32,000 nucleotides of DNA from Planctomycetales bacterium. Lineage in GTDB: Bacteria; 4484-113; JAFGCY01. Below are positions 8,187 to 26,217 of this stretch, one piece after another. The position numbers and the translations under genes were made by a program. Under the pieces are notes generated by a model, which saw only the letters and a list, made by a program, of their open reading frames with translations, did not search any database and was not told the DNA's origin. The stretch lies in contig CP060262.1 in NCBI GenBank assembly GCA_022646745.1, positions 540,001 to 572,000 of the forward strand. Reading direction: 5' to 3'. The first letter of the stretch is position 1. Each line of letters opens with the position of its first letter.

Positions 8187-8246
8187 GTGGAATCCTCCAA
8201 GGGGATATGTCTGATCCAGCATAGCCTATGCGGCCAGGGGATCAGC

Positions 8247-8966: not shown

Positions 8967-9174
8967 TATCGTCCCGGCCTGTCCTGCACGGCCTCCCTTG
9001 GAGTTTTCGGTCGCGGCAGATATTCCTGTCGCGATTTCTGCTCGCAGATTCCCTTTCAGTAAATAATGACGCAGCTGCAGCTAAATCGGTGACTATTTTT
9101 CCGGGGGAGAGACACACTTATAAAATATGTATGGCGGAATCACAGGCGAATTTCGCCGGGCAAACAGAGGAATC

Positions 9175-10512
9175 ATGGGACTACTTGATAAATTCAGGCC
9201 GAAATGGCAGCACAGCGACTGGCAGGTCAGGCTTGAGTCACTGGAGGAATTGACGGACCAGCCCACGCTGGCGCGGCTTGCCGCGAAGGATCCGGAGCAG
9301 CGGGTCAGGCTGGCCTGCCTCGACCGGATCAGTGACGAATCCATGCTTGCCCAGGTCGCGGGTAGTGCGCAGGACCCGCTGGTACGCAGCCGGGCAGTGG
9401 TACGCCTGATGGACCAGGCTGCGATTGCCGGTTTCGTGAAGACCGACCCGGAACGGATGGTGCGCCAGGCGGCGCTGGATGTCTGTAATGACCAACCCCT
9501 GCTGTTCAGCATTGCGACCTCAGACCCTGACTTGCCGCTGCGCAAGGCGGCTGCCGGTCGCCTGGTGGAGCAGAAGCTGCTGGCGAAACTGTTCGAGCAA
9601 AGCAGCGACTGGGAGGTCCGCCAGGAGGCGGTTGGTAACCTGCAGGATGCGGAACTGCTGATAGACATCGCCAAGACCGAGAAGACCGCCACCACCCGCC
9701 AGCGTGCCACTGCGCGGCTTGATGACCAGTTCATCCTCGGAGATATCGCCCGCAACGACCGTGACATCTCCGTCCGGGTGACCGCGATCGGCCGGCTGCA
9801 GGACGAAGCGATCCTCGAGGAGCTGCTGCGCGATGACCCCAACCGTGACATCAGGCTGGCGGCCGTGCGCCGGGTCAGTTCGCTGGATGCGATCGGCAAT
9901 GCGGCCCGCGGTGACAAGAGTGACGAGGTGCGCATCGCCGCAGTGGAGCGCATCGAGGACCAGGCGGTGCTGGGCAGCATCGCGCGCACCGACCGGATCA
10001 GCGATGTACGCATGGCGGCCGTGATGAAGCTGCGTGACCAGGATGTGCTGGCGAAGGTGGCCGTGGAGGACAGCCGAGAAATTGTGCGTGAGGCGGCCGT
10101 CTGGCTGCTGGATGATGATGCGCTGCTGAAGCGGATCTGCATGACGGATGTGCACGCGGAGGTGCGGATGGCAGCCTGCGAATGCATCCGCGACCCGCAG
10201 CTGCTGGCGGAAATCGCTCGCGACTGCCTCGACCCGGCAGTCCAGCTGCAGGCCGTCAAGGAACTGGCGGACGGGCACCAGCTGCTGGCCGTGGCGCTGT
10301 CATCAACCGACAGCGACGTGCAGCGCGCAGCGGCAATGCGCATTACAGACGATGTACTGCTTGGTGAGCTGGCCTGCCAGAGCACCCAGGCTGAGCTGGG
10401 GAGCTATGCCACGCGTCGTATTTCAGACCGCACGGTGCTGGAGCATGTGAAGGGCAACGGTGGAACCTACGAGGCCCGCAAGGAAGCCGGCACGAAGCTG
10501 AAGGGCGAGTGA
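9175..10512 (+). CDS. Alpha-solenoid repeat protein (HEAT / PBS-lyase / LRV-like), about 16 tandem repeats of about 26 aa.
   Basis: The repeat unit D(P)..VR.AAv.rL.D...L..IA recurs through the whole ORF. The ATG at 9175 is preferred (AGAGGA a few nt upstream) over the ATG at 9127. The 430-aa antisense ORF is Ser/Ala/Arg-rich shadow. Confidence 0.85.
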   Translation: MGLLDKFRPKWQHSDWQVRLESLEELTDQPTLARLAAKDPEQRVRLACLDRISDESMLAQVAGSAQDPLVRSRAVVRLMDQAAIAGFVKTDPERMVRQAALDVCNDQPLLFSIATSDPDLPLRKAAAGRLVEQKLLAKLFEQSSDWEVRQEAVGNLQDAELLIDIAKTEKTATTRQRATARLDDQFILGDIARNDRDISVRVTAIGRLQDEAILEELLRDDPNRDIRLAAVRRVSSLDAIGNAARGDKSDEVRIAAVERIEDQAVLGSIARTDRISDVRMAAVMKLRDQDVLAKVAVEDSREIVREAAVWLLDDDALLKRICMTDVHAEVRMAACECIRDPQLLAEIARDCLDPAVQLQAVKELADGHQLLAVALSSTDSDVQRAAAMRITDDVLLGELACQSTQAELGSYATRRISDRTVLEHVKGNGGTYEARKEAGTKLKGE

Positions 10513-11318: not shown

Positions 11319-14300
11319 TCATTCGAGGGTGCCGATGGAAAACAATGTTCCGTTCGTACCGCTTGCATAAATCGAACCGTCAGCGCCAGTTGCCAACGTG
11401 GAGGGAATCTGGCCCAGGCTCTCCGGCAGTTCCGTCCTCCACAGCTCATTGCCAGCCATGTCCGCCTTGATAATTATCGGGACCTTGCCATACCTGCTGG
11501 CCAGGCACAAGGTACCCGCTGAATCAAGGGATACTCCTGAATACTGGGTGCCAACCAGGCTGTACAGCCGGATGCCTGCGGCATCACAGGCCCTGAATTC
11601 AGCTCCATTCAGGTAGCTTGTCTGGTCCACATCAAGGCCTGACACAAGCGACTCAATGCCGTTGATGTTAGCCAACCACTTCACGTTCCCTGAACTGTCC
11701 AGCGTGAACACCTTGCCATCGGAAGTCAGGTTCTTCAGCGTACAAAAGACCACCTCCCCGGAGTCTGCCACTGCAGGTGCCGACCTGATGGCTCCACCTG
11801 CGTAGTAACTCCAGCACTTGGTGCCGTTTTCATCAAGGGCATACATCGTGTAATCATCTGATCCAAAGTAGATCTTTCCATCACTTCCCATGCTGGCGGA
11901 GGAATGTATCTCCCCGAATGTCTGGAAAGTCCAGCTGAGCTCGCCTTCCGGGGAAAATGCATACATGTACCGGTCCAGGCTTCCGATGTACACCGTTCCA
12001 TCCTGGCTGACCAGCGGGGATGCCCGGACCGCGGCCCCTGTCTGGTAGTACCACTTTGTCCCGCCGTCAGGATTGATGGCGTATATCCTGCCGTCATCAC
12101 TACCCACGTATATAGTTCCATCAGGGCCGATTGCAGGCGAGGCAAGTATCCTGTCGTTGGTTGGATAAGTCCACCTGACTGTTCCATTTGAATTGACAGC
12201 GTACAACTTATGGTCCTGGCAACCCACGTAGATCGTCCCGTCAGCACCAATCACGGGTGAATCGAAAAAGCAGCTTCCACCGAGCTTGAGTGTCCAGCGC
12301 ACGACCGCGGATTGTGGGTGAGTGAATTCGCTGCGGCAGTTCCGCCTTGCATTTCCGCCAAGCATTGGCCATGGACTGGTTGTGGCCACTGAAACGCTGG
12401 CAGTATCAGTCCCGCCACTGTTGTCCGCTGCCCTGACCCGTACCAGGTAGCTGCCGGGTTCGTCGTAGTCACCGACGACCTGCGGCCCTGCTGCAAGCAA
12501 TTCAAAGTAACCGTCACCGTCCAGGTCCCAGTCATAGCCAACAATGAATCCATCCGGGTCAGAACTGCAAGAGGCATCAAACCTGATGGAAAGCGGATCC
12601 ATGCTGAGCAGTTCCTGGGAATATACGTCAGCCACAGGCTGCATGTTTCCGCTGAAGGTCCCAATGGCAACCAGGCGGCCATCATTGCAGCCAACATATA
12701 TGTTGCCATCATGTCCGATGGAAACCTCGCAGTCCAGCTCTCCGCCATACTCCTTTCCGATCCTGCGACTGGAGAGAGGGGATCCATCGGCAGCCCTGAC
12801 AATCAAGTCTCCTTTCCTGTTGCCAAGGTATATTCTGCCAGCACCATCAACGGTCAGCCCGCTATGAGTTGAGCTCCCCACACCGTCGCTTGACAACTGA
12901 AGTCCGCCGCCAGCATACTTCAGCAGAGTCCCGTTCGCCTGAAGCATACAGACATGGCCGTCGTCCAGAGGTACAGGCGATGCACGGAATCCATATTGCT
13001 GATCCGCCTCCCAGACCAATGTCCCGTCAGCCTCCAGGCAGCCATGCCTCCCCTTCAGCAAGGCCACATAGATCCGGCCATCAGTCCCAACAGCCGGGGC
13101 AGGCACCGGACCCTCAAAGACGGAAGGATCACCGTTGAATCCATGGGACCAGCGTGGTGAGCCATTTGCCGTCAGGGCATGAAGTTCATCCGTGCCGGCT
13201 ATGAAGTAAAGGTTGCCGATCTTGTCCTCGGCAACCGACGACTGGATCGGATACCCTGCGTTGAACTGCCATTGCAGCGTGCCGTTACCGTCCAGGCAGT
13301 ACAGGTTCCCATCCCGGCTGCCGATGACCACCCTGCCGTTGGCATCCACCAGCGGTGAACTGACGATCTCACCGCCTGTGCTGAACTGCCAGAGCAGGTT
13401 GCCCATGAAATCCAGTGCACTGACAACACCGTCCGTGCTGCCGACGAACACCTTTCCGTTTGGATCGACAGCGGCACTGGAGAGGATCTCGCCACCTGCC
13501 TGGTATGTCCAGCGCAGGGTACCTTCAGGGTTGATGCAATGGAAGCGCCCGCTCGCGCTGCCTGAATAAAGACGTCCTTGCGGATCCTCCACCGTGCCGG
13601 CTGTCACCTCGCTGCCCAGGTCAAGTTCCCATAGAATCGGCATGCCGTACCTTCCGAGGACTGGTGACATGCCACTACGGCGATTGTCATGCATGCCGGT
13701 GTACCAGTCACCGTCGGCTGGCAACTGTCGGGATGTGACACCGCCGAGCATCCAGGCCTTTTCACCTGTCAGTACGACGGCAATCAGCACATCCGTCTCC
13801 CCAAGCATGGAGGCTGGAATGTCAAACTGCTGGAAACCTGTTGGATCCCCATGCTGCCAGATCCAGCGCTTTCTGCCGGAATCGCCAAAGCCGATGGACA
13901 ACCTGTCGTAGTCCAGCACCGGCCCACTCCAGCTGAATTCCAGCAGCAGGCTTTCCTGTCCCGCCGGAATCCCCAGCCTGTAGATGCAATGGCTGGTTAC
14001 ATCAGATTCGTCTATCGGGCTTTCCCAGTGAGGGAAGAAGATCGCCGATCCATCCCCTGTCTTCGTCACCTTACTTGAGGGCAAGGTCGCCTCGAACTGG
14101 TCTGCCTTGAGGGAGAAGGGTGCCGCGCTTGCATTTCTTCCAGAGTCCTGCGGATAGGGTATCGACAGCCCTGACATCGGGACTTGCTGGTCATTCTGCA
14201 TCCCGGTGTCAGGCAAAGGCAATGCCGTACCGGCACTGTCACCGGACGCACAGGCAGTACACAACAGAAGCAAGCCCGTGAGAATTCCCACGCGGGCATG

Positions 14301-14330
14301 AAACGCAAAGCCACGCTTCGAAGCTGACAT
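11319..14330 (-). CDS. Lipoprotein with two PQQ-like (BamB-type) beta-propeller arrays separated by a PKD domain.
   Basis: Many repeats of the type G.l.W.y..gg.i.sSPav..dGtvyvGs.dg.lyAl. The PKD-like segment is IRFDASCSSDPDGFIVGYDWDLDGDG. Signal peptide: MSASKRGFAFHARVGILTGLLLLCTACASG. The start is uncertain: ATG at 14330 or 14342, while the ORF opens at a TTG at 14390. Confidence 0.88.
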   Translation of the reverse strand: MSASKRGFAFHARVGILTGLLLLCTACASGDSAGTALPLPDTGMQNDQQVPMSGLSIPYPQDSGRNASAAPFSLKADQFEATLPSSKVTKTGDGSAIFFPHWESPIDESDVTSHCIYRLGIPAGQESLLLEFSWSGPVLDYDRLSIGFGDSGRKRWIWQHGDPTGFQQFDIPASMLGETDVLIAVVLTGEKAWMLGGVTSRQLPADGDWYTGMHDNRRSGMSPVLGRYGMPILWELDLGSEVTAGTVEDPQGRLYSGSASGRFHCINPEGTLRWTYQAGGEILSSAAVDPNGKVFVGSTDGVVSALDFMGNLLWQFSTGGEIVSSPLVDANGRVVIGSRDGNLYCLDGNGTLQWQFNAGYPIQSSVAEDKIGNLYFIAGTDELHALTANGSPRWSHGFNGDPSVFEGPVPAPAVGTDGRIYVALLKGRHGCLEADGTLVWEADQQYGFRASPVPLDDGHVCMLQANGTLLKYAGGGLQLSSDGVGSSTHSGLTVDGAGRIYLGNRKGDLIVRAADGSPLSSRRIGKEYGGELDCEVSIGHDGNIYVGCNDGRLVAIGTFSGNMQPVADVYSQELLSMDPLSIRFDASCSSDPDGFIVGYDWDLDGDGYFELLAAGPQVVGDYDEPGSYLVRVRAADNSGGTDTASVSVATTSPWPMLGGNARRNCRSEFTHPQSAVVRWTLKLGGSCFFDSPVIGADGTIYVGCQDHKLYAVNSNGTVRWTYPTNDRILASPAIGPDGTIYVGSDDGRIYAINPDGGTKWYYQTGAAVRASPLVSQDGTVYIGSLDRYMYAFSPEGELSWTFQTFGEIHSSASMGSDGKIYFGSDDYTMYALDENGTKCWSYYAGGAIRSAPAVADSGEVVFCTLKNLTSDGKVFTLDSSGNVKWLANINGIESLVSGLDVDQTSYLNGAEFRACDAAGIRLYSLVGTQYSGVSLDSAGTLCLASRYGKVPIIIKADMAGNELWRTELPESLGQIPSTLATGADGSIYASGTNGTLFSIGTLE

Positions 14331-14497
14331 CTTGTCCACCATTTCCCAGTTTCCTACAGCGTTCTCCCGGTCCCACCGGAAGCTGATCAATCCTCTGCAC
14401 TGAAATCGACGAATCAGATGGACATGGGTTACATGTCTTTCCCGTCCGGCTCCGACATGGTTTCCTCAAGGGCCGGGCAATGTATCTCGTTCAAAGC

Positions 14498-14865: not shown

Positions 14866-16221
14866 ATGGGGAAGGACGGCAGCAGACATGGCAACCGTGC
14901 AAGGCGGATCCTGGCCTGGATCGGATTAAGCCTGCTTGGATTGCTGCTCGCAGCCATCACACTGGTCATTTACATCACGAAACCCGTCACCGGACACTAC
15001 CCGTTGCTGGTGCGCGACTGGGAAACTGAGTGGTTTGACGGCAATCTGCGCAACCGGATGTATGTCACTGATGGCGGTATGATCGTGATCCACAGTGGAA
15101 ATCGCTTCATCGCATTTGACTCAAGCGGCAGGCAAGTCTGGGAGCGGGAGCTGGACGACCTGCCGGAGCGTGCCAAGGTCTTCTACGGCAGGGTAATCGG
15201 TCTTGCCCTGTTTGACAATGGACACCAGCTCCAGGTGCTTGACATGCAGGACGGCAGCACACGCTGGAGCGTGGAGCTTTCCGGCGGGCAGCAGGCTTCC
15301 CATAAGGTCTCACGGGTATCCACCAGCCCGGACGGCAGTTTACTTGCGTTGAGCAATGCCGGTCACCTGTTCGTGCTCGATGCAGCTGGCAAGCTGCTGG
15401 CGGATGCCGACACTAGTGTGCTCAGTGGTGAGCCGCAGCGGATCAACCTGGAGGACAGCGGCCAGCTCACGCTGTGCCTGAAGGTCGGGCATGGCTTTGA
15501 CTACCAGCGACTGTCAGATGGCACATTCAGCCGCGTATTCCCGGGCATGACTGGCGGATTCAACTATGCCCAGCTCACTGAGAATGGCAACTTCATGTTC
15601 TCACGCACTGACTTCAACGCTGGGATCTGCACGATGGACCTGCTGGCACCGGACGGCACTCTCCTGCATTCGGAGCCGACACCGGAAGGCAGTATCAAGT
15701 CAGCCACTAATGCAGGCTACCTGACCTGGATCAATGGCGGACACGCCAGTGCCAACAGCAGCATCAGCCGGCTCAGGCTGTCTGACTATTCCTGCGAGCT
15801 CATCAATACCGGCAGCTTCTGCCCGGACATGCCGATCGCGATTGATGCTGCCGGCAACCTGCTTGTAAAGGGATCGCCGGGCAAGAACACGGTTGGATAC
15901 GAATACCTGCGCAACAAGCTGTCAGAGGCAAACTGGAAGGCCTATGAGCATGCTCCCTCTGTCGCCGGACTGATTCCGGACCTGCCCCTGGCTGATGGAA
16001 ACTTCGTGATGCTGGTTGACACCGAAGGCAACCAGACTGTCTTCCGTACAGATGACTCCCTGTACATCTTTGATTCCTTCCAGCACAGTGTCAGTGAATC
16101 GGAACTGTCAGTTGTGTATGCCACCGAGGAAGAGGAACTGTCTCCTGGCCAGCGGGACGAAGCTAACGGACGCGTGCGTTTTGTACAACTCAGCCTGCCT
16201 GTAACGGCTCCGGCTGAATGA
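14866..16221 (+). CDS. Membrane-anchored protein with a propeller-like (PQQ/WD-like) ectodomain.
   Basis: N-terminal anchor RRILAWIGLSLLGLLLAAITLVIYI. Repeats include IAFDSSGRQVWEREL, LQVLDMQDGSTRWSVEL and LFVLDAAGKLL. Confidence 0.72.
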   Translation: MGKDGSRHGNRARRILAWIGLSLLGLLLAAITLVIYITKPVTGHYPLLVRDWETEWFDGNLRNRMYVTDGGMIVIHSGNRFIAFDSSGRQVWERELDDLPERAKVFYGRVIGLALFDNGHQLQVLDMQDGSTRWSVELSGGQQASHKVSRVSTSPDGSLLALSNAGHLFVLDAAGKLLADADTSVLSGEPQRINLEDSGQLTLCLKVGHGFDYQRLSDGTFSRVFPGMTGGFNYAQLTENGNFMFSRTDFNAGICTMDLLAPDGTLLHSEPTPEGSIKSATNAGYLTWINGGHASANSSISRLRLSDYSCELINTGSFCPDMPIAIDAAGNLLVKGSPGKNTVGYEYLRNKLSEANWKAYEHAPSVAGLIPDLPLADGNFVMLVDTEGNQTVFRTDDSLYIFDSFQHSVSESELSVVYATEEEELSPGQRDEANGRVRFVQLSLPVTAPAE

Positions 16222-16413: not shown

Positions 16414-19035
16414 ATGGCAATGCGTACTTGCGGCAGCCCTTATCCAACGGGCAATTGCTGGCGAAGCAAGCTCCTTGGCGGAGCTTCACTCAGGCCGGGA
16501 TTGTTCCTGAGTTCAGTCTTCATCCTGCTTCTCATGGTCTCATGTGGCAAGGGCAAGGCTCAGATCGACACCGAGATACTTGTCCCGTCCCAGGCTGTGG
16601 CCGTTCCCAGCCAGATGGATGCCCTGCCCGCAGCGACGGGCGAGGAACTGGCAATCGCCCGCAGGGAGCTAGCGTCACTGGACATTCCGGACGGTGTTGG
16701 CAGTGATGCCTGGCAGCAACTCTGCGATGCGCTGCTGGATTCCATGCAGAACCGCAGCACAAGCAAGCTGCCCAACGAGTCCCGCAATGTGATCGATGAC
16801 CTGCAGTGGATCGACAACGGCGGCGGGGACTTCAGCCTGGAGTGGACCTTCCGCAATGCCGGAGACTATGACAACAACGGCGAGGTAAACGTCTCCGACC
16901 TGAGCGCGATCGGAGTGCACTTCGGCAAGAACGAGTCCAGCAGCAGCTGGGCAAGCGCGCAGACGGCGGACGGTGATGGCAACGGCGAGATCAACATCGC
17001 GGATGTCAGCCCGATCGGCGTGAACTTCGGCTCCCAGGTGCTGGGATACAACGTCTATGCCTCAGACTACGAGGACGGCCCCTGGCTGCTGCAGGGCAGC
17101 ATCCCGCTGGAAGATGCAACTTCCGGATTCCCGCGAAAGTTCAGTTATGCATATGGCGCACAGGCGCACGCCTTCGTGTCAGTAGCACCGTTTGACAACA
17201 GTGGGAACGATACAGTTGCAGCCAGTGGAGGAACGGCAGCGAAGTACATTCCCGGCGAGGTCACCATGGGCGACAGTGCAGTGGTTGACCTGGAAAATGG
17301 AGCGGTGCTTGAGGGAGATGCAGGCACACCACTTGAAGGAGTATCTGTTCTAATTCCTGAAGGTGCAATGCCAACAGCGACATCCATTGCGATTGGATAC
17401 AACGATGGCATAGTCATACCGGTTGCCGGGAACTGGAGCGGCACCATTATTGAAATTGGCGATGAACCACTCGTATTCGACGTTCCTGTGGAAATCACCG
17501 TGCCTTACTCCGGCAATCCGGACGAGGTTCCAGTTCCATACTACATCAATGACGACAGCAAGCTTGAAGCTTGCATGGTGCAGGAGGTCAACGGATCCGA
17601 GGGTACGATGACCTTCATCACGCTGCATGCTTCTCGCTTTACGTGGATCATAAGTGTTGGTCTGCCTGAGAAGGTTAATACTGAATTCAAGCCCAGCAAG
17701 GATGGATTTCAAATTGCCAACTGGGGATCCCTTTACGAACGCAACGGGGAATGCCTGGGCATGGCCACCTTTGCCTCCTGGTACTACGCAAAGAAAAGAG
17801 CGGGAGAAACTTCCAGCGACCTGTATCCAAGCTTCATGTACGCCTTAGGCAGTGATTATCTGACAGCTCCAAGCGGTGAAGTGATAAACGTGAACATTAC
17901 TGGCCAGGATGCCATTGCCACGCGTGCCCACAGCGCTTTGAACTCACTGTGGTACAGATACGGAGCTGTCTATGCTCGAAACCCGGGCAATGAGCTTCAT
18001 ATACTCCACCAGATCTGCAATTCTATGGCGAATACGAATACTCCAACGCCTCTTTACCTGGCATATTCAGGGATTAACCCCGCCCTCTATTTCAACGGAG
18101 ACCATTGCGTCCTAGCTTATGCATATGATGACGGAGTAATCTCGGTGTACAACCCAAACCTTCCTCCGTTCGAGGAAGAGATCACATACAACGGCCTGGA
18201 TTTTGATATGTATGAAGACAAGTACAATGTTGTCTACAATCTGGGCATGGGTTCGTACATGAAGGAGAGCTTTGGCAATATTCTTGACGACGCACAGAAC
18301 ATGTTCTCTGGCACCTTGATTGCCGAAGTTGCAGAAGTGAATTACCAGAACGGAGCTGTCGTGGATGTCCCGGAAATCGTGCTCCAGGGCGAAGTGCAAA
18401 GCAGTCAGTTGCTTGTGGAAAGAATCAAGTTCGATACGGGCCTGTTCGTAGTGGAGAAAGCTGTCAATGTTGATACCGGAAAGTGGTCGGCCAGGATCCC
18501 CTTGCAAAGTGGCGATAACTTCATAAAGATCATCACTGAGGCACGTAACCAGGATGGAAACTGGTTTGTTATCCCTAACAACTTTGATCTGACCCATGGA
18601 CTGCACTTAATATGCGAGGCTCCTTCCGCGAAGATGCGTATTACCCTGACCTGGGATCAGGAAAATCGCTTCGGGCTCGAGGTGACGGATCCGACGGGCG
18701 ATGTAGCAAGCTCCGCCAGCTCACACGGCAACGCCGGGATCACAACAGACGATGGTGGAAGGATCGATGGAAGCTACTTCAACGGAGGGCCTTTAAGTTT
18801 CATTATCGGTGAGAATGACACCATAAGGAATGGAGAGGAATACAGAATCAGGGTGCTGAACAATTCCTCCTCGGCCACCTATGATCAGATCCCAACCAAA
18901 TGGACACTTGCAGTCTCCGCCAATGATGGTCCGCCTGTCTACTACTCAGGAATACTTACCAAAGGGACCAACCAGTATGTTGACCCGGATGACTTCGGGG
19001 CCTACTGGAGCAAGTACATAGATATCACTCCATGA
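16414..19035 (+). CDS. Mosaic lipoprotein: dockerin module, FN3-like and beta-sandwich domains, a predicted papain-like (clan CA) cysteine peptidase core, an Ig-like domain, and a conserved C-terminal beta domain.
   Basis: GGAG lies 6 nt before the ATG at 16414. Lipobox LMVSC. Dockerin Ca loops are DYDNNGEVNVSD and DGDGNGEINIAD. GECLGM carries the Cys codon at 17752-17754, HCVLAYAY the His codon at 18103-18105, and YNPN lies just downstream. The C-terminal block is RITLTWDQENRFGLEVTDPTGD. Confidence 0.85.
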   Translation: MAMRTCGSPYPTGNCWRSKLLGGASLRPGLFLSSVFILLLMVSCGKGKAQIDTEILVPSQAVAVPSQMDALPAATGEELAIARRELASLDIPDGVGSDAWQQLCDALLDSMQNRSTSKLPNESRNVIDDLQWIDNGGGDFSLEWTFRNAGDYDNNGEVNVSDLSAIGVHFGKNESSSSWASAQTADGDGNGEINIADVSPIGVNFGSQVLGYNVYASDYEDGPWLLQGSIPLEDATSGFPRKFSYAYGAQAHAFVSVAPFDNSGNDTVAASGGTAAKYIPGEVTMGDSAVVDLENGAVLEGDAGTPLEGVSVLIPEGAMPTATSIAIGYNDGIVIPVAGNWSGTIIEIGDEPLVFDVPVEITVPYSGNPDEVPVPYYINDDSKLEACMVQEVNGSEGTMTFITLHASRFTWIISVGLPEKVNTEFKPSKDGFQIANWGSLYERNGECLGMATFASWYYAKKRAGETSSDLYPSFMYALGSDYLTAPSGEVINVNITGQDAIATRAHSALNSLWYRYGAVYARNPGNELHILHQICNSMANTNTPTPLYLAYSGINPALYFNGDHCVLAYAYDDGVISVYNPNLPPFEEEITYNGLDFDMYEDKYNVVYNLGMGSYMKESFGNILDDAQNMFSGTLIAEVAEVNYQNGAVVDVPEIVLQGEVQSSQLLVERIKFDTGLFVVEKAVNVDTGKWSARIPLQSGDNFIKIITEARNQDGNWFVIPNNFDLTHGLHLICEAPSAKMRITLTWDQENRFGLEVTDPTGDVASSASSHGNAGITTDDGGRIDGSYFNGGPLSFIIGENDTIRNGEEYRIRVLNNSSSATYDQIPTKWTLAVSANDGPPVYYSGILTKGTNQYVDPDDFGAYWSKYIDITP
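16541..17255 (+). repeat. Direct repeat, copy 1 (about 715 bp, no indels, roughly 90% identical to 19207-19921).
   Basis: Hand alignment at a constant offset of 2666 nt. Two perfectly identical blocks: 16541-16672 (132 bp) and 17188-17249 (62 bp). The repeat starts exactly at the lipobox Cys codon. Confidence 0.9.
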
Positions 19036-19076
19036 TCTGAAATAGGCAATGTCCAATAATCACCAGGGAGCCTCAT

Positions 19077-21665
19077 GTGACATCACTGGAAACACGACTG
19101 AGCCGGATCGAAAGATTCTCCGAATCTCGTGAAGAATCAGCTCTGACCATTGCCATGAGACCAGGATTCATCCTGGCTACATTCATCATCCTGCTGATCA
19201 CCGGAGCATGTGGCAAGGGCAAGGCTCAGATCGACACCGAGATACTTGTCCCGTCCCAGGCTGTGGCCGTTCCCAGCCAGATGGATGCCCTGCCCGCAGC
19301 GACGGGCGAGGAACTGGCAATCGCCCGCAGGGAGCTAGAGTCACTGGACATTCCGGACGGTCTTGGCAGCGATACCTGGCAACAAATCTGCGGTGCACTC
19401 ATCGAGAGTCTTCAAGCGCGTGGCATAAGCAAGCTGCCAAACGAATCGCGCAATGTGATCGACGACCTGCAGTGGATCGACAACGGCGGCGGGGACTTCA
19501 ACCTGGAATGGACCCTGCGCAATGCCGGCGACTATGACAACAACGGCGAGGTGAATGTCTCCGACCTGAGCGCGATCGGAGTGCACTTCGGCAAGAATGA
19601 GTCCAGCAGCAGCTGGGCCACCGCTCGGACCGCTGACGGAGATGGCAACGGCGAGATCAACATCGCCGACGTCAGCCCGATCGGCGTGAACTTCGGCTCG
19701 CAGGTGCTGGGCTACAACGTGTATGCCTCGGACTACGAGGACGGCCCCTGGCTTCTGCAGGGCAGCATTGAGCTGGCGGATGCGACGACCGGCTTCCCGC
19801 TCAGGTTCAGCTATGCCTATGGGGCACAGGAGCATGCCTTCGTCACGGTGGCTCCGTTTGACAACAGTGGGAACGATACAGTTGCAGCCAGTGGAGGAAC
19901 GGCAGCGAAGTACATACCGGGTACGACGACGGAGCAGTCCAGCCAGGCAATTGATGAGGCAGGTGGTCAGCTTGTCGGAAGCGGCAATCTGGATGGAGTG
20001 ATCGTTGATATTCCAGCCGGAGCGCTTGACAGGCCGGAGACCATTTCGCTGGGAAGCAATGACGGCATGATCCTGCCGGTGGTCGGTACATGGGGAGGGT
20101 TGATCATCGACATCTCCGGAGAGGACCATATCCTGTTTGATGAGCCACTTGTCATCACAGCTCCCTTCACCGGCGATCCCGACCAGGTGCCCATTCCTTA
20201 CTACATCAGGGAAGATGGACAGCTGGAAGCCTGCATGCTGATGGATCTTGATCGTGGCAACGGCACTTTCAGCTTTGCGACTGAGCATGCAACTAAGTTC
20301 GCCTGGATAACATCCGAGCCATCGGATTATAAGGGCAGTTACGTGGTTGAAAGCTTCAGTCCGCTGAAATACGGGTTCCAGATCGGCAACTGGGGATCCC
20401 AGTACAGTCTCTCCGGTGAATGCCTCGGCATGATCAGCTTCAGTCAATGGTATTTCCGGTTCGCGTCACCAAAGCCGGACTTCTACCCCTTATTCATGGA
20501 AGTCCTTGATTACGACCACCTGGACTTCCCCCTGTACGGCCAGAACATCATTGCCACCAGGGCTTTCAATTCCATGGCTGATGCACAGCTGAGATGGCTC
20601 AGGTACAGGCCGGATATTGTTGAATTCAGTGAGCAGCTGGTGTTGATCAAGAATGAACTCATCACGACCGGCGAGCCAGTGCATGTCGGCCTTAGTGAGG
20701 ATAATTATGTCAAGAACCATGCTGTACTTGCATATGGGTACACTGAGGATCAGCTACTGATATACGACCCGAATTTCCCCGGTGACCTGCCATTCATTAA
20801 TATCAGCGAGGATGGTTTCTTCTATGCCGGGGGACCGGATTGGACACAGATGTACCACATTGGCATTGGCACGGTAGTGAGGGAGAACTTCTCAAACATC
20901 CTCCAGGATGCCCAGGGTGGTTTCACCGGCAGCCAGGATGCACTTATCGACAGTCTCAATTACTCAAACGGCGACATTGTCACCACGGATGAAATCACGC
21001 TGACCGGCAAGGTTTCAAGCAGCGAGTTACTGATTGAACGGCTGAAGATCTACACGGGATACTCTGAACATGAGGCCAAGGTGTCCAGCCTGAACGGCGG
21101 ATTCACCATCAAGTTGCCAATCAAGGACGGAGACAATTACTTCTTCTTTCGCACTGAAGGGCGTGATGGAGTTAACAACTGGATAGAGGCAAACAACAAC
21201 TTCGCCTTCAATCGTGGATTGTATATCGTCGGCGAGTACAAACCTGAAAAGCTTCGCATAACCCTCACATGGGACCAGAACAACAGCTTTGGCATGAATG
21301 TGAAGGATCCCTCAGGCGAAACACTGTTCGGGAACAGGATGGCAAATCCCGGCATGGATCTCGTGTCTGCTGCCGGAGGCTACTTCGAAGGAACGTACGA
21401 GTCCGGCGGTCCGCTCCATTTCGTCATTCCCGCAGATGGCACGCTGCTTCCCGGCTCATTCCAGTTCGTGGTAAGGAATACCTCCACCTTAGAAGAATAT
21501 GGTGTAGTGGAAGCCAATTGGCAAGTGTTGATTTCATTCAATGAAGGTGAGCCCCTGGTTCGCAAGTCACGAATTGAAAAAGGGAACGTGGAGCTGGACC
21601 CTGAATGGGGGCCTTACTTCAGCGCATGGCAACATATCTTCTTCGATGGAGAAACTGCCAAGTGA
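19077..21665 (+). CDS. Paralogous mosaic lipoprotein: the same dockerin N-module with a divergent papain-like cysteine peptidase body.
   Basis: The GTG at 19077 has GGGAG 6 nt upstream; the alternative start is the ATG at 19155 (MRPGFILATFIILLITGAC). The dockerin loops are identical in type to those of the upstream gene. GECLGM carries the Cys codon at 20421-20423 and HAVLAYGY the His codon at 20718-20720, followed by YDPN. The C-terminal block is RITLTWDQNNSFGMNVKDPSGE. Confidence 0.85.
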   Translation: MTSLETRLSRIERFSESREESALTIAMRPGFILATFIILLITGACGKGKAQIDTEILVPSQAVAVPSQMDALPAATGEELAIARRELESLDIPDGLGSDTWQQICGALIESLQARGISKLPNESRNVIDDLQWIDNGGGDFNLEWTLRNAGDYDNNGEVNVSDLSAIGVHFGKNESSSSWATARTADGDGNGEINIADVSPIGVNFGSQVLGYNVYASDYEDGPWLLQGSIELADATTGFPLRFSYAYGAQEHAFVTVAPFDNSGNDTVAASGGTAAKYIPGTTTEQSSQAIDEAGGQLVGSGNLDGVIVDIPAGALDRPETISLGSNDGMILPVVGTWGGLIIDISGEDHILFDEPLVITAPFTGDPDQVPIPYYIREDGQLEACMLMDLDRGNGTFSFATEHATKFAWITSEPSDYKGSYVVESFSPLKYGFQIGNWGSQYSLSGECLGMISFSQWYFRFASPKPDFYPLFMEVLDYDHLDFPLYGQNIIATRAFNSMADAQLRWLRYRPDIVEFSEQLVLIKNELITTGEPVHVGLSEDNYVKNHAVLAYGYTEDQLLIYDPNFPGDLPFINISEDGFFYAGGPDWTQMYHIGIGTVVRENFSNILQDAQGGFTGSQDALIDSLNYSNGDIVTTDEITLTGKVSSSELLIERLKIYTGYSEHEAKVSSLNGGFTIKLPIKDGDNYFFFRTEGRDGVNNWIEANNNFAFNRGLYIVGEYKPEKLRITLTWDQNNSFGMNVKDPSGETLFGNRMANPGMDLVSAAGGYFEGTYESGGPLHFVIPADGTLLPGSFQFVVRNTSTLEEYGVVEANWQVLISFNEGEPLVRKSRIEKGNVELDPEWGPYFSAWQHIFFDGETAK
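19207..19921 (+). repeat. Direct repeat, copy 2 (partner of 16541-17255).
   Basis: Same hand alignment as for copy 1. Similarity ends abruptly after ...GGTAAKYIPG. Confidence 0.9.
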
Positions 21666-21983: not shown

Positions 21984-22155
21984 CCCTGTTGCCAAGTGGT
22001 GTTACAGCGCGCGAATGGAGCTTATCCCTGGCACATGCATGCGCGGCAGGGACTTTGCCGCATGAAATCCGCAGGCTGGAAAGGGCCACTGACGGATCTT
22101 GCGGAAACTCTTAGTTCGCACTGAGATTCCGGACCCGACAATTCAGGGAAAATAC

Positions 22156-22185
22156 TTGACATCTCCAGTCAAAGACTGTTATACT
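22156..22185 (+). promoter_or_regulatory. Near-consensus sigma70 promoter giving a leaderless comM/yifB transcript.
   Basis: TTGACA (22156-22161), an 18-nt spacer, then TATACT (22180-22185). The A of the ATG at 22192 is the 7th nt after the -10 element, and there is no Shine-Dalgarno sequence. Confidence 0.6.
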
Positions 22186-22191
22186 ACACGC

Positions 22192-24000
22192 ATGTTAGCA
22201 ATTGTCAGGGGCGTAAGTATCGTCGGGCTGGATGCCTTCGTAGTGGATGTGGAGGCGGACATGCGCTCCGCGCTGCCGAAACTGGTGATCGTCGGCCTGC
22301 CGGATGCCTCGCTCAAGGAAAGCCAGGAGCGGGTTGAGAGTGCGGTGCGAAACAGCGACCTCGAATGGCCAATGGCCAAGATCGTGATCAATCTCGCGCC
22401 GGCGGACCTTAGAAAGGAGGGGACAGGCTTCGACCTGCCGATCGCTCTGTCGGTGATCTGCTGCAATGGCCAGTGCGACACCAAACGCCTGAAGGACTAC
22501 CTGATAATCGGTGAACTGTCGCTGGACGGCGCACTCAGGCCGGTCTCAGGGGTGCTGCCAATGGCACTCAAGGCCCGCGCACTGGGGATGAAGGGCGTGA
22601 TCGTGCCGCAGGAGAATGCAGCGGAAGCCGCGGTGGTGGACGGAGTGGAAGTGATCGGGGCGCAACACCTGTCGCAACTCGTCAGCTGGGCCCGCGGCTT
22701 CACGGAGATCGAGCCGGAACCCTTGCGCAATATCTCTGAGCTGCTTGTCAACGAAGGCCACCTGGCTGACTTCGCCGAGGTGCGCGGCCAGGAGCATGCC
22801 AAGCGGGCGCTGGAAGTGGCGGCGGCCGGCGGGCACAACCTGCTGATGCTCGGTCCTCCCGGCAGCGGCAAGACCATGATTGCCAAGCGCGTGCCGGGCA
22901 TCCTGCCGGACTTGTCCGAGGAGGAAGCGCTTGAAGTGACGCGCATCTACTCTGTGGCGGGTCTCCTGGACCAGTCGCTTGGACTGGTGACAACGCGTCC
23001 CTTCCGCGCCCCGCACCATACTGCAAGCATCCCGGGAGTGATCGGCGGCGGCAGCATCCCGCGTCCAGGTGAGATCAGCCTGGCCCATAATGGCGTGCTG
23101 TTCCTCGACGAAATGCCGGAGATGTCACGCACCCTGCTGGAAACACTGCGCCAGCCGCTGGAGGACGGACAGGTCACGATCAGCCGGGCCAACCTCGCAC
23201 TGACATTCCCCAGCCGCTTCATGCTGGTGGCAGCGATGAACCCCTGCCCCTGCGGCTTCTATGGCGACAGCGTGCATAAGTGCTCCTGCAACATGGGAGA
23301 GATCCTGCGCTACCGGCAGCGCATCTCCGGGCCGCTCTTGGACCGGATCGACATGACAATCGAGGTGGCGCGCCTTCCGGTGGAGAAGCTGACCCGTGAC
23401 GATGATGAGGTGCGTGGGGAGCCAAGTGCCGAGGTGAAGCTGCGTGTGATGTCGGCCCGGCGCATCCAGCAGCAGCGCAACCTGCTGCCGGTGGAGCCGG
23501 AGAGCGCAGCCGGCAGTCCCGTTGACACCATGGAGCTGCAGCGCCGCGCCCAGCAGCAGGCGGAGGATGAGGGCAGCCCGGGCAGTGCCGGCGAGGAGGA
23601 CCTTGCGGAAATGACAACAGCTGAACTGGCGCTCAGGTTGAGTGGGGCCGGGATGGCTCCGGCGACGGCCCCACGCACTTCCGCTGCCACTCTTGAGCGT
23701 ACAGCCCGCCAGGCCCTGAAGGGTGGCAACGCTCGCGGGCTGAGCGGGCAGCATGCCCGCAGCTGTACCAACGCCGCATTGTCAAGCCGGATGATGAAGG
23801 AATATTGCCGCCTTGACGAGGCCGGACGCTCACTGCTGACCCGTGCCGTGGAACGCCTCGGCCTGAGTGCGCGGGCCTATGACCGCATCCGCCGCGTTGC
23901 CAGGACGATCGCCGACCTCGATGGCTGCGAGAGCATCGAGGTCCCGCACCTCGCCGAGGCGATCCAGTACCGCAGCGGTGAGGAACGGCTGAGGAGTTGA
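22192..24000 (+). CDS. comM: YifB/ComM family Mg-chelatase-like AAA+ ATPase with an extra low-complexity insertion.
   Basis: The protein starts MLAIVRGVSIVGLDAFVVDVE (Lon-protease-like ChlI N-domain). Walker A is GPPGSGKTM and Walker B GVLFLDEM. A zinc-ribbon-like motif CPCGFYGDSVHKCSC is present. The C-terminus is LSARAYDRIRRVARTIADL...AEAIQYR. Confidence 0.95.
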   Translation: MLAIVRGVSIVGLDAFVVDVEADMRSALPKLVIVGLPDASLKESQERVESAVRNSDLEWPMAKIVINLAPADLRKEGTGFDLPIALSVICCNGQCDTKRLKDYLIIGELSLDGALRPVSGVLPMALKARALGMKGVIVPQENAAEAAVVDGVEVIGAQHLSQLVSWARGFTEIEPEPLRNISELLVNEGHLADFAEVRGQEHAKRALEVAAAGGHNLLMLGPPGSGKTMIAKRVPGILPDLSEEEALEVTRIYSVAGLLDQSLGLVTTRPFRAPHHTASIPGVIGGGSIPRPGEISLAHNGVLFLDEMPEMSRTLLETLRQPLEDGQVTISRANLALTFPSRFMLVAAMNPCPCGFYGDSVHKCSCNMGEILRYRQRISGPLLDRIDMTIEVARLPVEKLTRDDDEVRGEPSAEVKLRVMSARRIQQQRNLLPVEPESAAGSPVDTMELQRRAQQQAEDEGSPGSAGEEDLAEMTTAELALRLSGAGMAPATAPRTSAATLERTARQALKGGNARGLSGQHARSCTNAALSSRMMKEYCRLDEAGRSLLTRAVERLGLSARAYDRIRRVARTIADLDGCESIEVPHLAEAIQYRSGEERLRS

Positions 24001-24068
24001 TCGACAGGTTTCCGGTTCGGGTTTCCGGATTTGAGTGCCGATCCCCGAGGCCGGATCTCTGATACCTG

Positions 24069-24632
24069 TTAGTCCGCGTACTCCACCTTGCCCGTGAACC
24101 ACTTCGTGATATTGGCAACTGCCCAGGGTGTGTAGATGCCGAAGGTGATGCTGACGAGGATGCCCTGCACCAGGTAGAGCACGAGCACGTCAACACCGGT
24201 GCCGGTGAAGCGCAGCCTGCGTCCCGCCAGCGTGCAGTTGCCAACGACCCAGTCCATCATCTTGGCTGCTCCCCAGAAGGAGTAGATGCCGAATGTGACG
24301 AAGCTCAGCAGCATGATCAGCAGGAAGGGCCCGAGGAAGTCCTTCGCATCGCCGTTGAACTCGAGCCCGGTCAGCCTGGCAACACGGTTCTCCTGCGCCT
24401 TCTCACGTTCGACGGCCTCAGCCTGCTGGCGCTGCTCTTCCTCGAGCCTGGCCTTCTGCGCAGCGACCAGTTCCGCTTCCTTCCTTGCATTCAGCTCCGC
24501 GATGCCGGTCGCCCGGTCACGGCTGCAGCGCATGCAGTTCTCGTCAATCCCTTCATTGACATAACCGCAGACGCATTCCCAGTCTTGGAAGTCAAGCTGT
24601 GTGTCCATGCCGTCAATTGTCACCTGTGTCAT
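24069..24632 (-). CDS. Membrane protein with an N-terminal RanBP2-like zinc ribbon, a coiled coil and a DUF898/YjgN-like two-helix C-terminal module.
   Basis: The zinc-ribbon motif is WECVCGYVNEGIDENCMRC. A Glu/Gln/Arg-rich helix follows, then GPFLLIMLLSFVTFGIYSFWG and LVLYLVQGILVSITFGIYTPWA. GGAGGA lies 5 nt before the ATG. Confidence 0.75.
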   Translation of the reverse strand: MTQVTIDGMDTQLDFQDWECVCGYVNEGIDENCMRCSRDRATGIAELNARKEAELVAAQKARLEEEQRQQAEAVEREKAQENRVARLTGLEFNGDAKDFLGPFLLIMLLSFVTFGIYSFWGAAKMMDWVVGNCTLAGRRLRFTGTGVDVLVLYLVQGILVSITFGIYTPWAVANITKWFTGKVEYAD

Positions 24633-24902
24633 CGGTTTCCTCCGAAATTTTCAAACCGGAAGGTATACACAGCTATGCATCCTTCTAAACAGCCCGCACG
24701 CGGATCAACAGGCAAATCAACGCCGTGAATAAGCCCGATATGCGCGGAATGGGCTTCCAGATTGGCCTGCCGTGGCCTATACTGCTTGAAGTGGCAGTTT
24801 ATCCCCGCCGTGCATAAGCCGGGACACCAAATCTTCACATTTGTTTAGATATCTCATCGCCCTCTCATTCACCCAAAACGCCAACTATCTACAAACGTAA
24901 AG

Positions 24903-24931
24903 TAGAAAAAGCTCCCCGAAGGATTTAGAAT
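24903..24931 (+). promoter_or_regulatory. Candidate nrd promoter inside an AT-rich 400-bp intergenic region.
   Basis: TAGAAA (24903-24908), a 17-nt spacer, then TAGAAT (24926-24931). This would give a leader of about 100 nt before nrdB. Confidence 0.3.
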
Positions 24932-25040
24932 GTTGATAACTCAGCCCTTCCTATACGGATGTTGAGCAAAGGCACGCATGCCCCATCTTTCCCGGATGCC
25001 GGACTGCGCGCCAATCCGGAGATTGCGACAGGGAGTTTCG

Positions 25041-26135
25041 ATGGCGGCAGATATGGAGATCAGGATCGGTGACAGGCGCTTCCAGCTGGACGGCGCCAAG
25101 GCCGATGAGGCGATACACGGCAAGGCGATCATCAACGGCCGCCAGACCCCGCATTTCAACATCCTCCCGCTGAAGTACCCCTGGGCCTATGAGCTGTACC
25201 GCAACATGAAGGCCAACCACTGGGAGCCCGAGGACATCCCGATGGGCCGCGACATCGAGCAGTGGCGTTCCTCCGACGGCAGCATCACGGACATCGACCG
25301 CTGGATCATCCGCATGGGTGTCGGCTACTTCTCAGCCGCGGAAGGCATTGTCGGTGACAACATCCTGCATGTGATCCGCGAGAAGGTGACGGCATCCGAG
25401 CTGAAGCTCGTGCTCGGCCGTCATGCGCATGAGGAGAACATCCACGCCGACAGCCTGCTGTACATGGTCTCCAGCCTCGGCATTAATCCGCATGAGTGCG
25501 AGGCGATGTTCGAGGACATCGCCACCATCAGGCGCAAGAACGAGTTCGTGGAGCGTGTCACCCAGGGCATGCGCCGCGACATCGACCTGACGGAGACCCC
25601 GAGCAAGCAGAAGTTCGCCAAGAACATGTTCGTGTTCGGCCAGTGCATGGAAGGCACGCAGTTCTACGGCCTGTTCGGCATGGTGCTGTCGCTCTACCGC
25701 CAGAACAAGTTCCCCGGCATCGGGCAGATGTTCCGCTACACCCTGCGCGATGAAAGCAACCACATCGAGCTGCTGCGCCAGCTGTTCAACACGCTGGTGC
25801 AGGAGAACCCGGATGTCTGGACCGAGCAGTTCCGCGAGGAATGCCGCCAGCTGATGGCGACCGCCGTTGAGCTGGAGAAGGAGTTCATCTCCGACTGCCT
25901 GCCGGTCAGCGCGCTGGGCCTCTCGAAGGAGGACTTCCACCTCTACATCGAGTACATCGCCAACCGCCGGCTGGAGGGTGTCAACCTGGCGCCGCTGACG
26001 GTGGATGCACCGAACCCCTTCCCCTGGCTGGCGGAGATGATGGACATCAAGAAGGAACAGAATTTCTTCGAGGGCCGGGTGACTGAATACCAGAAGGCCT
26101 CCTCGCTGCGCAGCGTGGAGGATGACGAACTGTAG
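25041..26135 (+). CDS. nrdB: Ribonucleotide reductase small subunit, class Ic-like R2 with Leu at the radical-Tyr position.
   Basis: AGGGAG lies 5 nt before the ATG at 25041. Metal-ligand motifs are SAAEG (Glu codon 25341-25343), EENIH, CMEGTQFY and RDESNH. The residue four after the first His is Leu (CTG at 25455-25457). The C-terminal tail is acidic. Confidence 0.95.
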   Translation: MAADMEIRIGDRRFQLDGAKADEAIHGKAIINGRQTPHFNILPLKYPWAYELYRNMKANHWEPEDIPMGRDIEQWRSSDGSITDIDRWIIRMGVGYFSAAEGIVGDNILHVIREKVTASELKLVLGRHAHEENIHADSLLYMVSSLGINPHECEAMFEDIATIRRKNEFVERVTQGMRRDIDLTETPSKQKFAKNMFVFGQCMEGTQFYGLFGMVLSLYRQNKFPGIGQMFRYTLRDESNHIELLRQLFNTLVQENPDVWTEQFREECRQLMATAVELEKEFISDCLPVSALGLSKEDFHLYIEYIANRRLEGVNLAPLTVDAPNPFPWLAEMMDIKKEQNFFEGRVTEYQKASSLRSVEDDEL

Positions 26136-26217
26136 GACCGAAAACCGCGGGGGACGCGGGGATTGACGACTGACTGCTGATTCTGACAATGCCGCCATGG
26201 TGGCAGGAGAGAACGAG

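Follow-up and report, generated by a model that had tools for sequence, protein, structure and literature searches.

The window analysed in this work is a stretch of 32,000 nucleotides (nt) of contig CP060262.1 (positions 540,001 to 572,000, assembly GCA_022646745.1), deposited under the name Planctomycetales bacterium, and the coordinates given for w1, w2 and their neighbours are counted from its first letter. It contains two large co-oriented genes, here labelled w1 for the upstream and w2 for the downstream gene of the pair, whose products are predicted lipoproteins combining a dockerin-like module, a ZU5 domain, a papain-like hydrolase domain and two C-terminal beta-sandwiches. The two open reading frames (ORFs) are as follows.

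16414..19035, plus strand: w1 gene, upstream paralogue; ORF of 873 amino acids (aa) with an ATG start and GGAG 7 nt upstream
19077..21665, plus strand: w2 gene, downstream paralogue; 862 aa from a GTG start with AGGGAG 7 nt upstream

The two genes, which are 41 nt apart, sit where the original prediction, made from the sequence of the window alone, had placed them. The product of w2 is 100% identical to P0001 (H7A35_02200), a protein of a metagenome-assembled genome (MAG) labelled 'Planctomycetales bacterium', and w1 has three orthologues (P0003, P0004 and P0006); the tandem pair is also present in a MAG of the candidate phylum UBP7 (L001) and on an ENA contig (L018). Both proteins align from end to end with 52% identity (E = 0), a result that contradicts the earlier claim that their bodies share only short islands, since identity still amounts to 34-45% outside the N-terminal anchor module. 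Regarding the translation starts, the NCBI model of the w2-identical protein begins at M27, a later ATG at coordinate 19155. In both genes, Shine-Dalgarno-supported starts are found about 25 codons 5' of the signal-peptide core (16414-16485 and 19077-19154), and both pre-proteins would therefore carry an unusually long and non-conserved N-region, with a predicted local distance difference test (pLDDT) below 50. Promoter and terminator scans gave scores that were no better than those of shuffled sequence.

The body of each protein contains a domain with the hallmarks of a papain-like cysteine hydrolase, for which the following features were mapped.

17674..18318, plus strand: w1 papain-like domain, aa 421-635 (family alignments; profile match with E 4e-77)
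17752..17754, plus strand: w1 Cys447, predicted nucleophile (alignment, conservation)
18100..18102, plus strand: w1 His563 (alignment, conservation)
18148..18150, plus strand: w1 Asn579, third triad residue, Asp in most of the family (alignment, conservation)
20334..20936, plus strand: w2 papain-like domain, aa 420-620 (AlphaFold2 model, Foldseek)
20421..20423, plus strand: w2 Cys449, predicted nucleophile at the N-terminus of helix 449-463 (model, conservation)
20718..20720, plus strand: w2 His548 (model, conservation)
20766..20768, plus strand: w2 Asp564 (model, conservation)

A papain-like fold with a functional triad in w1 and w2 is well supported by structural models and by conservation. 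With 13 homologues as input, AlphaFold2 modelled w2 aa 420-620 at high confidence (pLDDT 86; predicted template modelling score, pTM, 0.88). In this model, a 14-residue helix begins with Cys449, His548 opens a strand and the strand after it closes with Asp564; the full-length w2 model (pLDDT 87, pTM 0.77) agrees with it on the placement of the triad residues. When this domain was compared with the PDB by Foldseek, papain-fold enzymes made up 43 of the 50 top matches, including IdeS/Mac-1, papain relatives, CtaG, AvrRpt2, USP14, a C39-like protein, SpeB, PCAT1, GtgE and ATG4. The best of them was IdeC (E 1e-2, prob 0.98, template modelling (TM) score 0.3), and no PDB entry was matched at E<=1e-3. 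In both proteins, the Cys is found in the context G-E-C-L-G-M and is followed by a motif H(A/C)VLAY...Y(D/N)PN, with a Cys-to-His spacing of 116 aa in w1 and 99 aa in w2 and with Asn579 or Asp564 16 aa past the His. Across 163 homologous domains, the triad is retained to a very high degree, i.e. Cys in 145/154 (94%), His in 153/160 (96%) and Asp or Asn in 157/159 (99%), the third residue being Asp in 150 and Asn in seven of the 159 domains. Further strongly conserved positions in this set are Asn438, Gly447, Gly451, Trp458, Gln489, Arg495 and Asn566. The papain-like Cys-His-Asn core that had been announced from the sequence is thus borne out, and the two Cys codons had been located exactly (17752-17754 for C447 and 20421-20423 for C449). 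In the same vein, the models did not set the Cys, His and Asn/Asp in a non-papain arrangement and the profiles gave no assignment to a non-catalytic fold, the two outcomes named beforehand as telling against such a core; nor was there a strong match to a characterised family, which would have told against novelty.

No named family accounts for this domain, as had been anticipated. Neither Pfam nor NCBIfam has a family that covers the enzyme region of w1 or w2 (aa ~420-620), and NCBIfam gave no match of any kind to either protein. Pfam offers sub-threshold hints only, to Peptidase_C39_2, Peptidase_C39 and Peptidase_C70; these families were not reached by the w2 domain, which scored 13.2 bits against a cut-off of 24, and the best E-values among 13 members were 0.0024 (C39_2) and 0.015 (C39), with C70 at 0.0042 in one of 49 members. 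Sequence and profile comparisons of the enzyme domain with the PDB returned noise and no sequence relative, and the BFVD library of viral folds gave no match at E<=1e-3, the weak ones being to phage peptidase and CHAP-like entries.

Just before the enzyme, each protein carries a second domain of recognisable fold, which the original prediction had taken for a beta-sandwich spacer and which is actually a ZU5 domain.

17266..17658, plus strand: w1 ZU5 domain (Pfam ZU5, family profile, Foldseek)
17626..17634, plus strand: w1 H405-A406-S407, predicted autoproteolysis motif with a cut at A406/S407 (conservation; position taken from the w2 model)
19923..20318, plus strand: w2 ZU5 domain, aa 283-414 (model, Foldseek, family profile)
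20286..20294, plus strand: w2 H404-A405-T406, predicted autoproteolysis motif (in the model, a beta-turn before the last ZU5 strand)

Indeed, a Foldseek search with the full-length model retrieved the ankyrin ZU5 structures 3kbu and 3f59 (prob 1.0, TM 0.61-0.64 over ~155 aligned columns), and a 29-sequence profile of the region matched the ZU5 domains of ankyrin-2 (E 1.5e-4), ankyrin-3 (1.2e-3) and ZO-1 (0.04). The Pfam ZU5 model itself matches nine of 29 members (best 3.7e-5) and aligns with w1 at aa 307-368 with E 0.021 and 15.5 bits (cut-off 21). No GAIN structure was present among the top 50 Foldseek matches of the full-length model. The association with the enzyme is nearly constant, since the ZU5 domain sits N-terminal to it, at a median distance of 10 aa, in 191 of the 202 members with enough N-terminal sequence.

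The best-conserved feature of this domain is a motif F-x-T-[FWY]-H-A-S-x-[FY]-T-W. Among the large family members, its His is found in 116/134 and the following hydroxyl residue in 123/133 (120 Ser and three Thr); the His is also the sole invariant column of alignment A6, in a domain that averages 38% column identity. In the w2 model, the motif falls between strand 397-404 and the last strand 407-413, which are connected by a two-residue turn (405-406). Both the motif and the catalytic triad are intact in 160 of 191 members. It is important to note that the ZU5 domains of PIDD, NLRP1 and CARD8 are cut at HF/S and SF/S in the turn before the last strand (PMC3210808), and that GAIN and microbial MAIN domains are cleaved at an HxS/T beta-turn with fragments that stay associated (bioRxiv 10.64898/2026.05.12.724683). 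ZU5 autopeptidases had also been predicted earlier in bacterial surface proteins (Zhang et al. 2012, PMC3482391). On the strength of its motif, the ZU5 domain of w1 and w2 is probably self-cleaving. The presence of a ZU5 domain with a conserved autoproteolysis-type motif in front of the enzyme, instead of a spacer, changes the likely mechanism of these proteins.

Downstream of the enzyme, both proteins end with two beta-sandwiches.

18319..18618, plus strand: w1 Ig-like beta-sandwich (Pfam Glucodextran_B with E 0.0026 at aa 679-716)
18631..19032, plus strand: w1 C-terminal DUF2135/YfaP-like beta-sandwich, RITLTWDQ... (DUF2135 matches in relatives)
20937..21236, plus strand: w2 Ig-like beta-sandwich (strands 622-719 in the model)
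21249..21656, plus strand: w2 C-terminal DUF2135/YfaP-like beta-sandwich (strands 726-856 in the model)

At the family level, Glucodextran_B was detected in 13 of 49 members. The last domain corresponds to the shared C-terminal beta domain RITLTWDQ...DP(T/S)G(D/E) that had been noticed in both proteins at the outset. It escapes Pfam PF09906 (YfaP/DUF2135) in w1 and w2 at E<=1; four of 49 relatives match this model, and P0067 (Solidesulfovibrio sp. DCME) reaches 22.7 bits for a cut-off of 22. This DUF2135-like domain is the reason why PGAP and JGI annotate relatives as 'YfaP family'. The C-terminal beta-sandwich of YfaP/DUF2135 proteins is probably homologous to that of w1 and w2; the name covers the last ~130 residues only and is silent on the ZU5 and enzyme domains. 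The family core is thus made of four domains whose order is fixed: ZU5 comes first, then the papain-fold hydrolase domain with its Cys-His-Asp(Asn) triad, and the Ig-like and DUF2135/YfaP-like sandwiches follow in that order.

In front of this core, the first ~270 residues of w1 and w2 form a cassette composed of a signal with a lipobox, two helices, a dockerin-like module and a small sandwich.

16486..16545, plus strand: w1 hydrophobic signal segment and lipobox LMVS-C44, Cys codon 16543-16545 (read from the translation)
16858..17025, plus strand: w1 dockerin-like module with two Ca-binding loops, DYDNNGEVNVSD and DGDGNGEINIAD (Pfam Dockerin_1)
17041..17259, plus strand: w1 small beta-sandwich closing the anchor module (boundaries by alignment to the w2 model)
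19155..19211, plus strand: w2 hydrophobic signal segment and lipobox TGA-C45, Cys codon 19209-19211 (translation; model helix 30-42)
19524..19691, plus strand: w2 dockerin-like module with the same two loops, DYDNNGEVNVSD and DGDGNGEINIAD (Pfam Dockerin_1; model helices)
19704..19916, plus strand: w2 small beta-sandwich closing the anchor module (strands 212-261 in the model)

The lipoprotein signal claimed for both proteins is confirmed at the level of its lipobox-type Cys (C44 in w1, C45 in w2), conserved in 90% or more of 14 relatives, and both LMVS-C44 and TGA-C45 fit a PROSITE-type pattern. The original prediction of a canonical two-loop dockerin is right as to the two loops, and the w2 model shows three helices, at 163-170, 180-186 and 196-204; 'canonical' is slightly generous for Dockerin_1 matches that remain below the cut-off of 22.9 bits (w1, aa 149-199, E 3.6e-4, 21.1 bits; w2, aa 150-200, E 6.9e-4, 20.2 bits). 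The w1 module also shows a weak match to the dockerin pair 8x39. The same cassette precedes at least 25 bodies unrelated to that of w1 and w2 (P0014-P0038), among them PQQ propellers, PKD proteins and a subtilase; two of these 25 proteins are encoded on the same 4.1-Mb contig as w1 and w2; one cassette protein with an unrelated body adjoins a family member in L017 (3733-5166). Since a dockerin is carried by only three of 49 members of the wider family (14/146 when counted by motif), the lipoprotein-dockerin cassette is, as judged from sequence comparison, a lineage-specific display module that lies outside the family core. Finally, no third copy of any w1/w2 module was found in the window.

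The cassette and the core of w1 and w2 have apparently followed different histories. Identity between the two proteins amounts to 87-94% in the anchor module (aa 46-285) and drops to 34-45% in the remainder. Over aa 46-210, identity is 88-94% for amino acids, 90-91% for nucleotides and 80-87% for third codon positions at identical residues; from aa 286, the corresponding values are 34-45%, 48-56% and 37-53%. At the DNA level, the anchor modules (16492-17270 and 19158-19935) are 90-92% identical, with a sharp switch where the ZU5 domain starts. This break indicates that gene conversion, or else a recent exchange of the module, would have kept the two cassettes alike, their bodies being old duplicates.

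The family to which both proteins belong is large and scattered. An exhaustive profile search yielded, after clustering at 50% identity, 1403 clusters at E<=1e-3, 464 at E<=1e-10 and 93 at E<=1e-30, and relatives were located in 17 GTDB genomes from at least ten lineages. The closest ones are encoded by UBP7 MAGs, and distant ones were found in Eubacteriales, Deferrimicrobium, Bryobacterales, Pyrinomonadaceae, Ktedonobacteraceae, Dehalococcoidia, Puniceicoccaceae, Opitutales, Deferribacterales, Desulfobacterales, Desulfocapsa, Solidesulfovibrio, Planctomycetales and Bifidobacteriaceae. The N-termini of 192 members display a lipobox in 97 cases and another hydrophobic N-terminus in 84. We found no Pfam model (2025 copy), NCBIfam model, solved structure or paper describing this family, the literature having been searched for YfaP/DUF2135 and PF26997. 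The claim that the system is undescribed therefore stands, because no characterised family in Pfam, NCBIfam, the PDB or the literature matched it strongly. A precomputed match to Pfam PF26997.1 is attached to about ten relatives (P0187, P0194, P0196, P0224, P0227, P0228, P0232, P0233, P0249 and P0088). Since P0249 is a 404-aa N-terminal fragment, this model must span either the ZU5 or the enzyme domain, and a search of the literature on PF26997 returned nothing relevant.

In eight of the 17 genome loci, the family gene is directly followed by a gene for a secreted protein of 165-200 aa, one of these genes being on the opposite strand. The small protein is a free-standing ZU5 homologue (E down to 1e-20 against the large proteins) that ends exactly at the last ZU5 strand and in which the H-A-S motif is replaced by [VKQH]-P-[LGIV]. 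Coordinates are those of the respective loci, with the strand given where it is recorded.

L003, 2375-2884: small ZU5 paralogue gene
L004, 9446-9955: small ZU5 paralogue gene
L005, 9379-9981: small ZU5 paralogue gene
L006, 9573-10115: small ZU5 paralogue gene
L007, 9492-10001, minus strand: small ZU5 paralogue gene
L008, 9425-9922: small ZU5 paralogue gene, next to the family gene at 7422-9428
L015, 9431-9982: small ZU5 paralogue gene
L016, 3425-3937: small ZU5 paralogue gene

This paralogue may act as an inhibitor or a partner. The window has no such gene and carries two full-length family copies instead. Apart from it, the neighbourhoods of family genes are not conserved and include genes for a molybdopterin oxidoreductase, GH97, TPR proteins, PurL and others.

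From these elements, we propose that w1 and w2 are tandem paralogues of a widespread family and that each of them is an N-terminally tethered cysteine hydrolase that is self-cleaved, held and releasable, a reading that we consider fairly probable as a whole. After export, the proteins would be lipidated at Cys44 (w1) or Cys45 (w2), as suggested by their lipobox. The ZU5 domain would then cleave itself through an N-to-O acyl shift, at H-A/S407 in w1 and H-A/T406 in w2, a step to which the conservation of the motif and its position in the beta-turn before the last strand both point. By analogy with FIIND, GAIN and MAIN domains, the C-terminal fragment, made of the last ZU5 strand and the enzyme, would remain non-covalently plugged into the membrane-tethered ZU5 domain, from which it could be shed. 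Finally, the enzyme is predicted to hydrolyse peptide or amide bonds through Cys447/449, His563/548 and Asn579/Asp564, a chemistry suggested by its fold and conservation. A bolder extension, which we put forward only tentatively, is that these proteins represent a bacterial 'cleave-and-hold' device built on ZU5 rather than GAIN, lipid- or dockerin-anchored, in which one beta-strand would retain the enzyme until it is set free by force or by a ligand. They might then be the prokaryotic extracellular counterpart of the FIIND of NLRP1 and CARD8, and the secreted ZU5 protein encoded downstream in many phyla could be a partner acting in trans, e.g. an inhibitor or a receptor for re-capture.

Several observations weigh against the proposal of a self-cleaved and releasable hydrolase. 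The structural matches of the enzyme domain are all weak (best E 1e-2, TM ~0.3), the nucleophile Cys is replaced by Ser in three of the 14 closest sequences and absent in a fourth, the dockerin scores of w1 and w2 are just under the Pfam threshold, 146 of 191 members have an Ala immediately N-terminal to the predicted scissile bond, and most animal ZU5 domains, such as those of ankyrin, UNC5 and ZO-1, are to our knowledge not self-cleaving. The last two points bear on the possibility that the ZU5 domain stays uncleaved and serves as a prodomain, spacer or binding module, which would make w1 and w2 permanently lipid-anchored enzymes; we regard this as possible, if on balance unlikely. Indeed, the non-autoproteolytic domains just named are the closest structural or sequence matches, and the free-standing paralogues show that the fold can work without the motif. 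As for the Ala that precedes the Ser/Thr, proven sites have Phe or Leu at that position, and CARD8 required a bulky buried side chain there (PMC3210808). However, no position of this otherwise variable domain is better conserved than the His and Ser/Thr, these residues occupy the exact turn that is used in proven autoproteolytic ZU5 and GAIN domains, and the motif is missing precisely from those ZU5 paralogues that have nothing downstream to release. The chemistry could also differ: instead of a peptidase, the same fold would support a transglutaminase, amidase or acyl-transferase that cross-links proteins or forms amide bonds on the cell surface, an alternative that seems to us distinctly unlikely. 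The top Foldseek matches of the full-length model are TG3, TG2 and factor XIIIa (E 4e-6 to 9e-5, ~740 aligned columns), and these animal transglutaminases share the four-domain order of w1 and w2, i.e. a beta-sandwich, a Cys-His-Asp core and two beta-domains; besides, the amide-bond-forming CtaG is among the matches of the enzyme domain. Yet these transglutaminase alignments have TM scores of 0.08-0.10 and prob values of 0.4-0.6, so that the likeness is one of domain order and not of superposition, with no rigid-body or core-level similarity. When the enzyme domain is taken alone, transglutaminases are absent from the top 50 Foldseek matches, the best of which are peptidases, and the spacings in w1 and w2 (Cys-His 99-116 aa, His-Asp 16) resemble those of C39-like enzymes, unlike the 58 and 23 aa of TG2. 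Membership of the transglutaminase family was rejected, given that Pfam Transglut_core gave no match even at E<=10 in 13 members and that only the domain order is similar.

Another view of the locus gives the leading role to the dockerin, which would plug w1, w2 and the other cassette proteins into a cohesin scaffold at the cell surface to form a cellulosome-like complex. It takes up the original prediction, in which a lipid anchor and a dockerin together imply two modes of attachment. This would be compatible with the self-cleavage model, and we consider it unlikely. The two-loop module is present in both proteins and the fusion of the cassette to at least 25 unrelated bodies, two of them on the same contig, would suit such a complex. 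Against it stand the dockerin scores below the Pfam cut-off and the failure to find a cohesin among the ten largest ORFs of the 32-kb window, in line with the original prediction that no cohesin partner would be visible there. Outside cellulolytic bacteria, it is common to find dockerin-like modules where there are no cohesins, and the rarity of the module in the wider family implies that it takes no part in the core function. It is very improbable, in our opinion, that these proteins are non-catalytic adhesins, pseudo-enzymes or one half of a polymorphic toxin and immunity pair. Such ideas can draw on the loss of catalytic residues in some relatives (P0009, P0013), on the co-occurrence of ZU5 and papain-like toxins in polymorphic toxins (PMC3482391) and on the small gene that follows the large one in eight loci. 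The pseudo-enzyme idea was rejected because the triads of w1 and w2 are intact and those of 94-99% of the family are kept. The candidate of a polymorphic toxin with a ZU5-released peptidase was rejected as well: w1, w2 and family members have no RHS repeats and no Tox-PL Pfam matches, the enzyme domain is internal and not C-terminal, and the downstream gene, which the window lacks, encodes a secreted ZU5 homologue, unlike cytoplasmic immunity proteins.

The variants among the 14 closest sequences deserve a separate comment. The Cys-to-Ser replacements are found in P0005, P0011 and P0013 (SESLGM, GESLGM and ESLGR; alignment A1), and P0009 has lost both Cys and His and has retained the H-A-S motif of its ZU5 domain. 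On L018, P0005 (784 aa) forms a tandem pair with P0007, which has the Cys, and is followed by an overlapping 94-aa ORF (234-2820); its C-terminal domain looks cut short, probably as a result of a frameshift or an assembly error. These cases imply that occasional inactive or Ser variants exist in the family.

Among known enzymes, C39-like, C70 and C66 (IdeS/Mac-1) peptidases share with w1 and w2 the Cys-His-Asp order, a Cys at the N-terminus of a helix and a His and an Asp that lie on adjacent strands, 16 residues apart; w1 has an Asn as third triad residue, as in papain. The family nevertheless differs from the C39, C70 and C66 groups by scores that are all below family cut-offs (with TM ~0.3), by a signature of its own (GF(Q)I.N, GEC.GM, W, GQ..IATRA, H.VLAYGY and YDPN) and by the constant location of its core between a ZU5 domain and two beta-sandwiches. 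As for the cleavage module, the ZU5 fold with an H/S-x-S before the last strand is common to w1 and w2, to the FIIND (ZU5-UPA) of NLRP1 and CARD8 and to the ZU5 domains of PIDD. In all of them, the effector is C-terminal to the (predicted) cut, and the fragment of w1 or w2 would likewise start with a strand held by ZU5. What sets the w1/w2 family apart from these animal proteins is its bacterial origin, its extracellular location, the lack of UPA, death and CARD domains, an Ala in place of Phe at position -1 and the enzymatic nature of its effector. The MAIN proteins described by Brogan and Rudner, such as B. subtilis YfkN, are also envelope-tethered and carry a beta-sandwich with an HxS/T beta-turn that links the anchor to an enzyme, and the notion of a domain that is cleaved but held, then released, is the model proposed for them (bioRxiv 10.64898/2026.05.12.724683). 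The polarity is inverted, since MAIN proteins follow the order enzyme, MAIN and C-terminal wall anchor, whereas w1 and w2 have an N-terminal lipid anchor, a ZU5 rather than a GAIN fold and a C-terminal enzyme; MAIN proteins are mostly found in Bacillota and the w1/w2 family mostly in Gram-negative-type and candidate phyla. We did not retain w1 and w2 as members of the MAIN class, given the match of their fold to ZU5 and not GAIN and the N-terminal position of their anchor. Finally, ZU5 domains of large secreted bacterial proteins have been predicted to act as autopeptidases in processing, and papain-like domains accompany some of them (PMC3482391). The proteins considered by Zhang et al. have RHS repeats, C-terminal toxin tips and a link to TcdB/TcaC export, all of which are missing from w1 and w2.

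The genes that surround the pair are of diverse types. Directly upstream of w1, two PQQ/BamB-like beta-propeller proteins are encoded at 11319-14390 (minus strand) and 14866-16221 (plus strand), the larger of which combines its propeller with a PKD domain and a lipobox-like N-terminus, with homologues near family members in L010 and L017. Further upstream, three minus-strand ORFs of 1049, 810 and 239 aa (2429-5578, 5790-8222 and 8247-8966) have no Pfam match at E<=1e-3, and gene calls are uncertain around 5790-8222 because it overlaps an opposite-strand ORF of 824 aa. Downstream of w2 (22099-29403), there are genes for a ComM/YifB-type Mg-chelatase-like ATPase and for the small and large subunits of a class I ribonucleotide reductase. 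These downstream genes are syntenic with loci of UBP7 MAGs (L001 and L010), which supports a position of the window organism near UBP7 rather than within Planctomycetales.

To conclude, if the proposed reading is true, more than 1000 protein clusters that are now called 'hypothetical' or 'YfaP family' would be united in one defined family of cysteine hydrolases that are exported and whose active site and self-processing site can both be tested. It would also mean that the ZU5 self-cleavage known from animal cell-death and inflammasome proteins serves to tether and release enzymes on bacterial surfaces, and would complement the GAIN-like MAIN domains of the 2026 preprint with a system of opposite polarity and N-terminal lipid anchor. 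Besides, the lipoprotein-dockerin cassette shared by w1, w2 and proteins with unrelated bodies suggests that a little-known candidate phylum possesses a lineage-specific system for surface display.

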